A stretch of 64,000 bases of DNA, taken from the NCBI RefSeq assembly GCF_050920415.1, contig NZ_CP169310.1; one strand, 5' to 3'. Numbering within the stretch: the first letter of the stretch is position 1; the number at the start of each line of letters is the position of its first letter. Below are positions 22,656-24,232 of this stretch, one piece after another. The notes beneath the pieces are model-generated. The model saw nothing but the letters and a program-made list of their open reading frames with translations, did no database searches and was not told the origin of the DNA. Source of the stretch: Escherichia coli. Its GTDB lineage: Bacteria; Pseudomonadota; Gammaproteobacteria; Enterobacterales; Enterobacteriaceae. A program made the position numbers and the translations under genes.

Positions 22656-23309
22656 TCACAGAACAAACCATGTATACCCTGTATACCGGTGGTGATAGCC
22701 GCCTGCTGGCCTGCCGGAAGAAACTTTTTCCAGCACGATATCAGTCAGGCGCAATATTTCAGACCAGTCACTCTCGTGTGAATACTGGATCTGAACAAAA
22801 AGGCGTACCCGTTCACGATAATCCAGAGCCGTGCCCGGTTCATAAAAGTGGCCACTGTCAGGAGATACACGGGACGTTTTATTGATGAGCTCGTATTTAT
22901 CGGCATGAGTCTGTGACGACAGAGACCAGGTAATATTTTCTTCCTGCTCACCATCAATACGGCTATTCCCGGGCGTCCAGGCAATTTCCTGCGCACTGGT
23001 CACGATGATCTGTCTGGAGACTTCTGCCAGCTTTTTGGGAGTACAGAATACCCGGGCCAGCACACACAGGGACAACAAATTACAGCGGCCCTCTTCCGGC
23101 TTAAGCGGATTGCTCCCGGATTTCTCAGGAAAAGATATTTTTGTCAGTATTTCAGTTAATTCCTTATACCTGAGAGAATTAATAAAGTACATGACAAGCA
23201 TCATGAGAAACAATATAACAATAAGCCCTCCGATAACCACTAAAAGGTCAGTATCAATATTATTGCTGTACAGATAGTCTTTAGTTGTCGCTGTATTATC
23301 CTGTATCAC
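22656..23309 (-). CDS. Hypothetical membrane protein (217 aa), cargo between traT and traD
   Basis: AT-rich ORF with one N-terminal transmembrane helix; F has no gene at this junction as far as I recall. Confidence 0.5.
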   Translation of the reverse strand: MIQDNTATTKDYLYSNNIDTDLLVVIGGLIVILFLMMLVMYFINSLRYKELTEILTKISFPEKSGSNPLKPEEGRCNLLSLCVLARVFCTPKKLAEVSRQIIVTSAQEIAWTPGNSRIDGEQEENITWSLSSQTHADKYELINKTSRVSPDSGHFYEPGTALDYRERVRLFVQIQYSHESDWSEILRLTDIVLEKVSSGRPAGGYHHRYTGYTWFVL

Positions 23310-23470
23310 CGGGGGGATTCAGTTACAGGCTTCTCAGTAAATTGATTATTCTCACCAACATATTCAGCGATATTGTCTGATGTCATAATGACTTTCTCCG
23401 GAAGATCCCGGCTTCGCCGGCAACACTTCACGGTCGCACAAAGAATTTGCACAACCGTTCAGTGTTCTCA

Positions 23471-23552
23471 TATTTATTTCGGAAACGCCGGGAAGCGACA
23501 AAATTTATTTTGTTACTTCCCGGGGTTAGACAACGAGCAACGCGAGGCGTCA
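23471..23552. repeat. Copy C of the conserved structured repeat
   Basis: GAAACGCCGGGAAGCGACAAAATTTATTTTGTTACTTCCCGGGGTTAGACAACGAGCAACGCGAGGCGTCAG; hairpin CCGGGAAGCGACAAAAT/ATTTTGTTACTTCCCGG. Confidence 0.6.
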
Positions 23553-23620
23553 GTCAGGAGGCCAGTCATCCCAGCCACGGATAATATTCTCTTGACGCTA
23601 TTTAGTTTTATCCCTAAAGA

Positions 23621-24232
23621 TCAGCTATTAACCGTCATAAGCATCCATATCTGGTCAACATCTGATGAATCCTTATCAACAGCGACTGGTTCAATTGAAA
23701 GCGACCATATTGTTTTTCCATTAACAACACAGGAAAAGTCATCAAAGAAATAACCTCTTTTTATATGCTCATCCAGCTTTTTCGTTTGAAATCTATACGC
23801 AACTTTTTGTTCTTCAAAACTCTGATAAGAATCCCTGAATGCTTCATATGCTCCGAAATGAGCATACAATCCCATATCACGAAAGGCTTTAGCAACTTTA
23901 TAGCCTGATTCAATAAAAGTATCAGCCGTAAATTTCTTAATTCGACCTTGCCCTCCGCTTATAATACATAAGTTTTCAACATTCACCGATGGTGCTGCAA
24001 CCTGTTTATCAACAAACAAAGCTGGAGTATATAAAAAATAAGTATCAGAACCTCCAGTGCGGGTGATATAATTATAATTCTCATTATGAATATTATACAT
24101 TATCTGATCGGACAAAAATTCTCTTACATGTTTATTTTTATATTTATATAAAGCTCCTTCAGATACTTCTGTACTTATGCATCCCTGAATGAGAAAACAA
24201 ATTAATAACACTATACATTTTCTGATTAACAC
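23621..24232 (-). CDS. Hypothetical lipoprotein (203 aa), cargo between traT and traD
   Basis: AT-rich ORF with signal peptide and lipobox (LIQGC). Confidence 0.5.
   Translation of the reverse strand: MLIRKCIVLLICFLIQGCISTEVSEGALYKYKNKHVREFLSDQIMYNIHNENYNYITRTGGSDTYFLYTPALFVDKQVAAPSVNVENLCIISGGQGRIKKFTADTFIESGYKVAKAFRDMGLYAHFGAYEAFRDSYQSFEEQKVAYRFQTKKLDEHIKRGYFFDDFSCVVNGKTIWSLSIEPVAVDKDSSDVDQIWMLMTVNS

Follow-up and report, generated by a model that had tools for sequence, protein, structure and literature searches.

The traT-traD junction lies in the transfer operon of F-like plasmids, between the gene for a surface-exclusion lipoprotein and the gene for the coupling protein. We analysed a 64,000-nucleotide (nt) stretch of Escherichia coli contig NZ_CP169310.1 (assembly GCF_050920415.1), hereafter the window, in which segment 22601-24303 has 100% identity to the E. 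coli plasmid pCFSAN004180G (NZ_CP012500, 225 kb, IncFIA/FIB, mating-pair formation type MPF_F). All transfer genes of the window are carried by the minus strand. Read from traT towards traD, the junction holds a short hairpin, a 203-codon open reading frame (ORF203) predicted to encode an outer-membrane lipoprotein, a spacer containing copy C of a structured repeat, and a 217-codon frame (ORF217) that forms the tail of a frameshifted gene, ORF245 (Table 1). A sequence-only reading of the window had noticed both frames, each of them present on the minus strand, and had taken them for cargo inserted together with the repeat.

Comparison of the junction across F-like plasmids reveals a variable slot around one conserved spacer of approximately 170 bp (23405-23576), which is present in F itself. 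F, represented by the F' record of strain TG1, has a traT-traD gap of 252 bp without a gene, as the sequence-only reading had supposed. R100-like plasmids carry ORF245 between the two genes; pO86A1, a Klebsiella plasmid and the Salmonella plasmid pHL21A have the order traT-ORF203-traD; and the window combines ORF203 with a broken ORF245. In plasmids of Shiga toxin-producing E. coli (STEC; L019, 3206-3466; L020, 3441-3701; L numbers denote comparison contigs and loci), the ORF203 slot is taken by an 86-amino-acid (aa) ORF (MNRAESRLSQVLFLLGYDSEKYPEH...), which we rejected as a relative of ORF203 or ORF245, the sequences being unrelated. Alignments place both ORF203 and the STEC ORF between the traT stop codon and the first hairpin that follows traT in F. 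The right-hand junction of the ORF203 insertion coincides with a degenerate remnant of that hairpin, and the 3' end of the STEC ORF likewise runs into a remnant of it; towards traD, a mini-hairpin marks the boundary between sequence common to F and R100-like plasmids and the start of ORF245. A megablast search with 22601-24303 matched 3,781 plasmid records, about half of which span 22601-23576 and so include ORF245, the remainder matching only the 172-bp spacer (23405-23576). Relative to the F spacer, the window differs in that ORF203 separates the spacer from traT and ORF245 separates it from traD, and in that a hairpin stem has changed in a compensatory manner. Homologous recombination anchored on conserved modules could have placed variable genes between them. 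Providencia-type operons have yet another small envelope protein at this junction, a signal-peptide protein of 128-130 aa directly upstream of traD (L007, 8894-9286; L009, 10074-10460); the two examples share 33% identity, and neither is related to ORF245.

Table 1. Features of the window, with the evidence for each (R1, covariance model of the repeat module)
Feature	Position	Strand	Evidence or remarks
ORF217, 3' part of frameshifted ORF245; single transmembrane segment and C-terminal domain	22656-23309	-	217 codons from an arbitrary GTG
5' part of the same ORF245 copy	23306-23386	-	True ATG at 23386, 26 codons (MTSDNIAEYVGENNQFTEKPVTESPR), stop; alignment with L002, three-frame translations of seven loci
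Mini-hairpin CCGGCTTCGCCGG / CCGGCGAAGCCGG (tra-sense GCGAAGC); end of F/R100-like shared sequence, ORF245 start	23408-23420		Three-way alignment of window, R100-like and F sequences
Repeat copy C, module of ~88 nt in the traT-traD spacer	23471-23558	+	R1 107.4 bits, E 1e-31
Long hairpin of copy C, 16-bp stem and 3-bp outer helix	23484-23527	+	-25.2 kcal/mol on + versus -22.5 on minus
Degenerate remnant of the first post-traT hairpin of F (GGAGGCTGG...CCGGCCTCC); right-hand junction of ORF203 insertion	23560-23576	-	Alignments, fold
ORF203, predicted outer-membrane lipoprotein of an uncharacterised family	23621-24232	-	GTG start after AAGGGGG; homologs, dN/dS, AlphaFold2
Hairpin between traT stop and ORF203	24267-24297	-	-23.7 kcal/mol, z -2.8
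traT, surface-exclusion lipoprotein	24304-25035	-	ORF list, NZ_CP012500 annotation
traS-type entry-exclusion gene	25067-25570	-	C-terminal NPxTGxPM...GGFDSAGN motif family
traG	25586-28429	-	ORF list, NZ_CP012500 annotation
traD, coupling protein	20456-22600	-	ORF list; annotated traD in NZ_CP012500
traI	14470-19806	-	ORF list, NZ_CP012500 annotation
Repeat copy B, directly after the stop of a DUF2726 gene	11022-11112	+	R1 91.8 bits
Long hairpin of copy B	11035-11079	+	
ORF154 (154 aa), between copies B and A	10485-10949	-	
Copy A, remnant with both flanks and no hairpin	10416-10459	+	Alignment; 24-nt blast match; R1 9.8 bits
F-type oriT nick region TTTGCGTGGGGTGT/GGTGCTTT, exact, then GGTGGTGAGAACCACC inverted repeat	48870-48892	+	Marks + as the transferred strand
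AS-pc02	12190-12372	+	Rfam, 197 bits, above gathering score
AS-traI	16815-16891	+	Rfam, 105 bits, above gathering score
sok	10217-10374	-	Rfam, 86 bits, above gathering score

On the traD side of the spacer, the window copy of ORF245 has lost its reading frame. DNA alignment with the intact copy in L002 identifies a 1-bp deletion at 23316/23317, where the window reads GAAT-CCCCCC and intact copies read GAATACCCCCC. The deletion falls after codon 23, so that the conserved ATG yields a peptide of only 26 aa before a stop. ORF217 is simply read from the first GTG in the downstream frame, with no Shine-Dalgarno sequence before it. The window copy is probably a pseudogene, and for the identical RefSeq record PLSDB tabulates no coding sequence at ORF217, in a gene table that omits pseudogenes. 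The ORF245 family itself is a real gene: the ratio of nonsynonymous to synonymous substitution rates (dN/dS) is 0.28 in the ORF217 frame and 1.0-1.2 in both other frames, against 0.035 for traD and 0.08 for traT (the latter measured against the R100-like copy), and the intact form is annotated between traT and traD as a "hypothetical protein" of 243-246 aa (for example WP_074481271 and WP_015059020) in R100-like, pKPC-type and other IncF plasmids. ORF217 is 86% identical over 216 aa to WP_074481271, which occupies the same locus position; the window ORF thus shares with this family the transmembrane and C-terminal domains and the locus, whereas its reading frame from the conserved ATG is not intact. 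ORF245 is intact in L019, L002 and L026, and related copies bear other lesions: L005 has further indels, L020 an internal deletion, and in L004 the called gene is truncated. Full-length members reach down to 62-65% identity, with the N-terminal third replaced. From the positive-inside rule and the one transmembrane segment, the C-terminal domain is probably cytoplasmic. ORF245 has no Pfam match, neither ORF217 nor ORF245 matches NCBIfam, PADLOC or PHROGs, and the family profile has no match among PDB sequences; the AlphaFold2 model of ORF245, with a predicted local distance difference test score (pLDDT) of 47.6, was too unreliable for a fold search. ORF245 stands beside the coupling-protein gene in about half of the junction-matching plasmids, and we found no name or function for it in the literature. 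Two further copies show features of their own. In L005 (pCFSAN004178P_02), the C-terminal end of the ORF245 homolog contains a 9-bp unit encoding YTW in three copies (…YTGYTWYTWYTWFVL), and there is also a frameshift near the C-tract; in L013, a distant F-like contig, an ORF245 homolog of ~32% identity follows traT (9632-10324) and contains one in-frame TGA, which could be read through, could mark a pseudogene or could stem from a sequencing error.

ORF203, on the traT side, is an intact gene under purifying selection, with a dN/dS of 0.12 against the pO86A1 copy and a Salmonella copy. Its GTG start and strong Shine-Dalgarno sequence are kept in the compared copies, and its homologs keep the N-terminal signal and lipobox; for these reasons the RefSeq call of 159 aa (WP_001355324) begins too late. 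In pHL21A, too, RefSeq annotates only the downstream 159 codons, with the start as in intact copies. Nine close homologs of 203-218 aa have 50-90% identity, and the most distant of 11 representatives have 27-36%. The N-terminal signal is MLIRKCIVLLICFLIQGC, with the lipobox context MLIRKCIVLLICFLIQG before the Cys, and this Cys is nearly invariant over 15 family members down to 27% identity. It is well established that a lipoprotein lacking Asp at position +2 goes to the outer membrane. All aligned family members have I, V, S or T at this position and never Asp, which predicts outer-membrane sorting; ORF203 is probably cleaved at Cys18 and then sorted in this way. C89 and C168 are invariant in the family and may form a disulfide bond. 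AlphaFold2 predicts a small alpha/beta domain (pLDDT 80.6, predicted template modelling score 0.78), which gave no informative structural match; no match was found in Pfam, NCBIfam, PADLOC or PHROGs, or for the family profile among PDB sequences, and the literature yielded no name or function. ORF203 starts 71 nt past traT with one hairpin between them, the sequence of which is also present upstream of ORF203 in pO86A1. A minus-strand promoter scan of 22400-25200 reported no promoter-like site upstream of ORF203, and together with the short spacing this suggests that the gene is probably co-transcribed with traT.

A tblastn search of ORF203 against PLSDB, a collection of 72,556 plasmids, found 86 carriers, of which 81 are typed as conjugative, from Escherichia, Salmonella, Shigella, Klebsiella, Providencia and Photobacterium; by comparison, ~4,400 plasmids have the conserved spacer. 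The description of the two frames as AT-rich cargo by the sequence-only reading therefore fits one of them. ORF203 has 33.3% GC, the whole window 50.5%, and it is an accessory gene of rare occurrence; the 217-aa ORF, at 45.6% GC, is AT-rich only to a slight degree and is a frameshifted copy of a common backbone gene. That the frames might instead be standard backbone genes with transfer roles, the outcome named as speaking against cargo, is partly the case for the 217-aa ORF, which belongs to the backbone in about half of the matching plasmids and has no known transfer role.

The gene neighbourhood of ORF203 points towards plasmid exclusion. All homologs of at least 50% identity with examined context lie in F-type traG-traS-traT-traD exclusion loci, in several gene orders. 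Across the family, the orders are traG-traS-traT-ORF203-traD in the window, pO86A1, the Klebsiella plasmid and pHL21A; traS-ORF203-traT in the Salmonella contig L014; traG-ORF203-traT, with no TraS called, in contigs L009-L011 and L013 (L012 ends just past ORF203); and traG-(180 aa)-ORF203-(130 aa)-traD, with no TraT called, in the Providencia contig L007. This repeated placement among exclusion genes makes an exclusion or envelope role a reasonable expectation, and we infer from synteny that ORF203 would most likely act in the envelope of the recipient, as an accessory factor that brings about exclusion or interferes with mating. ORF203 resembles TraT (PF05818) in being a lipoprotein with a signal of the signal peptidase II type, in lying in the same exclusion locus next to traT, and in being probably co-expressed with it, and it is present in the Providencia locus where no TraT was called. 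It differs from TraT in length (203 versus 243 aa), in having no Pfam match to PF05818 and in showing no likeness past the signal peptide. The closest functional precedent is Sfx of IncC/IncA plasmids, an outer-membrane lipoprotein unrelated to TraT that provides surface exclusion in an F-type mating system, is constitutively expressed and has its specificity set by donor TraN (Rivard et al. 2024, PMC11493245). Sfx differs in its length of ~286 aa and in the position of its gene between traN and acaB, and the plasmid matches from tblastn reveal no homology of ORF203 to it. We therefore propose, tentatively and at slightly less than even odds, that ORF203 mediates recipient-side mating interference in the manner of TraT or Sfx while belonging to neither family. 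Several observations count against this proposal. The Gln at lipobox position -2 is atypical, and the pHL21A copy (L028, 4001-4612) has its lipobox Cys replaced by Arg and an in-frame stop, and is probably a pseudogene. Distant relatives of ~30% identity occur outside exclusion loci, one beside traM and one on a Photobacterium MOBH plasmid. Only ~3% of plasmids with the TraS type of the window carry ORF203 (86 versus 2,545), so that the gene is dispensable. In hhalign, ORF203 and TraT align over the signal peptide only, with 9.9% probability; no IncC or IncA plasmid was seen among the 86 tblastn matches, the Sfx sequence not having been directly compared; and we found no experiment or annotation tying ORF203 to exclusion. 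A tight linkage of ORF203 to the TraS type was likewise considered and rejected on the same counts.

Other functions for an envelope protein at this position have to be weighed. TraT also makes cells resistant to serum and hinders phages that depend on OmpA, and receptors can be masked by small lipoproteins, T5 Llp and Cor among them, so ORF203 could be envelope cargo unrelated to conjugation that confers phage receptor masking or resistance to serum or colicins and uses the post-traT site for strong constitutive expression. The rarity and dispensability of the gene and the distant relatives outside exclusion loci agree with such cargo. Neither PADLOC nor PHROGs has a match for ORF203, however, and the location of all examined homologs of at least 50% identity in F-type exclusion loci, in several independent orders, exceeds what a favourable expression site would lead one to expect; we consider this explanation unlikely, though it deserves attention. 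That ORF203 serves on the donor side as an accessory to the F-type mating machinery, for instance by helping TraG or TraN to stabilise mating pairs, appears improbable. Type IV secretion systems do contain outer-membrane lipoproteins, TraV for one, and ORF203 directly follows traG in L013 and is the next called gene after traG in L009, but its positions bracket traS and traT rather than assembly genes, and ~97% of the plasmids that share the TraS type of the window lack it, as do the efficiently transferring F and R100. Of the functions considered, mating interference on the recipient side is the most likely. In Enterobacterales, F-like plasmids are major vehicles for resistance and virulence genes, and their exclusion genes decide plasmid entry into occupied cells; if the proposal is true, a second lipoprotein in the exclusion locus, unrelated to TraT, would be a new determinant of plasmid compatibility.

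Between the two variable positions lies the repeat. Within the window, blastn aligns copy C (23473-23553) with copy B (11024-11107) at 78.6% over 84 nt (E 1e-11), and a search of the 64 kb with R1 recovered these two as the only full copies. The third copy, A, has no hairpin and scores 9.8 bits, so that of the three copies described in the sequence-only reading two are full and one is a remnant. Its suggestion that copy C was inserted with the cargo is contradicted by the distribution of the module: a spacer module of the copy C type occurs in ~4,383 PLSDB plasmids, F included, and copy C is ~90% identical to the F spacer, with the same three hairpins in the same order. The repeat is a conserved intergenic module and an ancestral spacer, with the variable genes on either side. 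Copies of the B type follow differing genes and lie upstream of hok/sok. Copies from Pantoea and Enterobacter plasmids have diverged: the flanks AGAAACG ... GGTTGGACAAC ... GGCGTCAG are retained, and the stems differ. A permissive DNA pattern run over the genome collection returned mostly chance matches, among which five new loci proved real after R1 (L083, L053, L082, L063 and L042). In the IncFII plasmid L006, hok/sok stands between two direct B-type hairpins (2533-2575 and 3007-3047); the corresponding window position after hok (~9990-10030) has a different GC-rich hairpin.

The structure of the long hairpin is conserved through compensatory change, in agreement with the observation in the sequence-only reading that stems differ between copies while the fold is kept. 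Read on the tra-sense strand, 84% of cells in the alignment pair, and five of 16 pairs are changed on both sides; on the + strand, 93.9% of cells are paired, against 41-68% when partners are slid by one to three columns, and four of 19 pairs are changed on both sides, with many G.U pairs at differing positions. With RNA parameters 12 of 13 variants are more stable on the + strand, and with DNA parameters all 13 are; G.U pairs over these variants number 21 on the + strand versus four on the sense strand. On the + strand the stem is often a perfect helix of 16 bp, with G.U pairs at sites that are A.C mismatches on the mRNA-sense strand (window, L003, L014, L042 and L063). No U-tract follows the stem on either strand, the tails being CGUUUCCGAAAU (sense) and GGUUAGACAAC (+), and a terminator scan of 22400-25200 reported none at the module; an intrinsic (Rho-independent) terminator was rejected on these grounds. 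Nor did an Rfam cmscan of 9500-26000 (4,227 models, E ≤ 1) place anything at either copy, its only matches being AS-pc02, AS-traI, sok and one chance CRISPR repeat. With neither a U-tract nor an Rfam match, the hairpin is not a canonical terminator. The nick motif of oriT sits on the + strand, which makes this strand, antisense to the tra genes, the transferred one. Given the + strand bias and the lack of a terminator, the constraint seems to act on transferred single-stranded DNA or on an antisense RNA rather than on the traT mRNA. Two points weaken this assignment: the 13 hairpin variants are mutually related sequences and not independent samples, and strand-biased C-to-T mutation could have produced some of the G.T pairs without selection. 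A hairpin with a bias to the transferred strand is thus present in F itself, absent from Rfam and undescribed in the literature we searched; were it to act as single-stranded DNA or antisense RNA, it would bear on the handling of the late-entering part of the plasmid during transfer.

A more conventional explanation is that the hairpin forms the 3' end of the traT mRNA, or for copy B of the mRNA of the gene upstream, and on the sense strand acts as a leaky terminator or protects the RNA from 3' exonucleases. The module lies downstream of a highly expressed gene, its sense strand still folds with -12 to -26 kcal/mol, GTTTCTGT follows a B-type copy, and terminator activity after F traT was reportedly described by Jalajakumari et al. 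(1987). Such an origin is possible but doubtful, since no U-tract follows the C-type stem on either strand and the scan found no terminator, the sense-strand A.C mismatches fall exactly at the + strand G.U positions in 12 of 13 variants, and in the window ORF203 separates the module from traT. It is very improbable that the repeat is a site of site-specific recombination or of a mobile element, attC-like or similar to repetitive extragenic palindromic (REP) elements, that captures flanking genes as cassettes. Single genes do lie between copies (ORF154 between B and A, hok/sok between the two B-type hairpins of L006), the structure shares its strand bias with attC and REP elements, and GTCCAAC / GTTGGAC resembles the attC core consensus. 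Against this, the only pairing outside the stem is AAC/GTT, over 3 bp, and the other flank, GTTTCCG, does not fit GTTRRRY; the + strand stem is perfect and without extrahelical bases; ORF203, the 86-aa ORF and ORF245 have their junctions at the other hairpins and not at this one; and each plasmid has only two or three copies. Identity with an integron attC site was rejected, as both the RYYYAAC ... GTTRRRY pairing and the extrahelical bases are lacking.

A constraint on the + strand therefore remains our preferred reading of the module. We consider the whole explanation, in which a variable slot surrounds an ancestral spacer with a + strand module, with one decayed backbone gene (ORF245) on one side and, on the other, one rare accessory gene of a lipoprotein family (ORF203) that would serve exclusion, to have a probability of roughly 0.55. 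A bolder combination is conceivable, though we would not expect it to hold in full: ORF203 would found a new family of surface-exclusion proteins, unrelated to TraT and Sfx, that accompanies or replaces TraT, and the module would be a strand-specific element, either a signal on the transferred strand, for example for priming or protein binding in the recipient, or an antisense RNA, that may also serve as an anchor for gene exchange.

The TraS of the window has no detectable sequence similarity to the TraS of F or R100, and its type is present in 2,545 PLSDB plasmids. The oriT was placed with what we take to be the F nick-site sequence of the F TraI literature, and from its position and strand the leading region lies at higher coordinates. 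The Rfam matches to AS-pc02, AS-traI and sok show that antisense RNAs known from pHK01 are conserved in the window. ORF154, just upstream of hok/sok, has a GC content of 35%, and searches of Pfam, NCBIfam, PADLOC and PHROGs gave no match for it. The 1.1-kb segment around it is covered to at least 80% by at least 282 PLSDB plasmids, and in many others the module adjoins hok/sok directly. Between traD and traI, a vapB/vapC toxin-antitoxin pair occupies 19819-20447 on the strand opposite to tra, and this placement looks usual because a VapC gene adjoining traD is annotated in the F' record and in several other plasmids.

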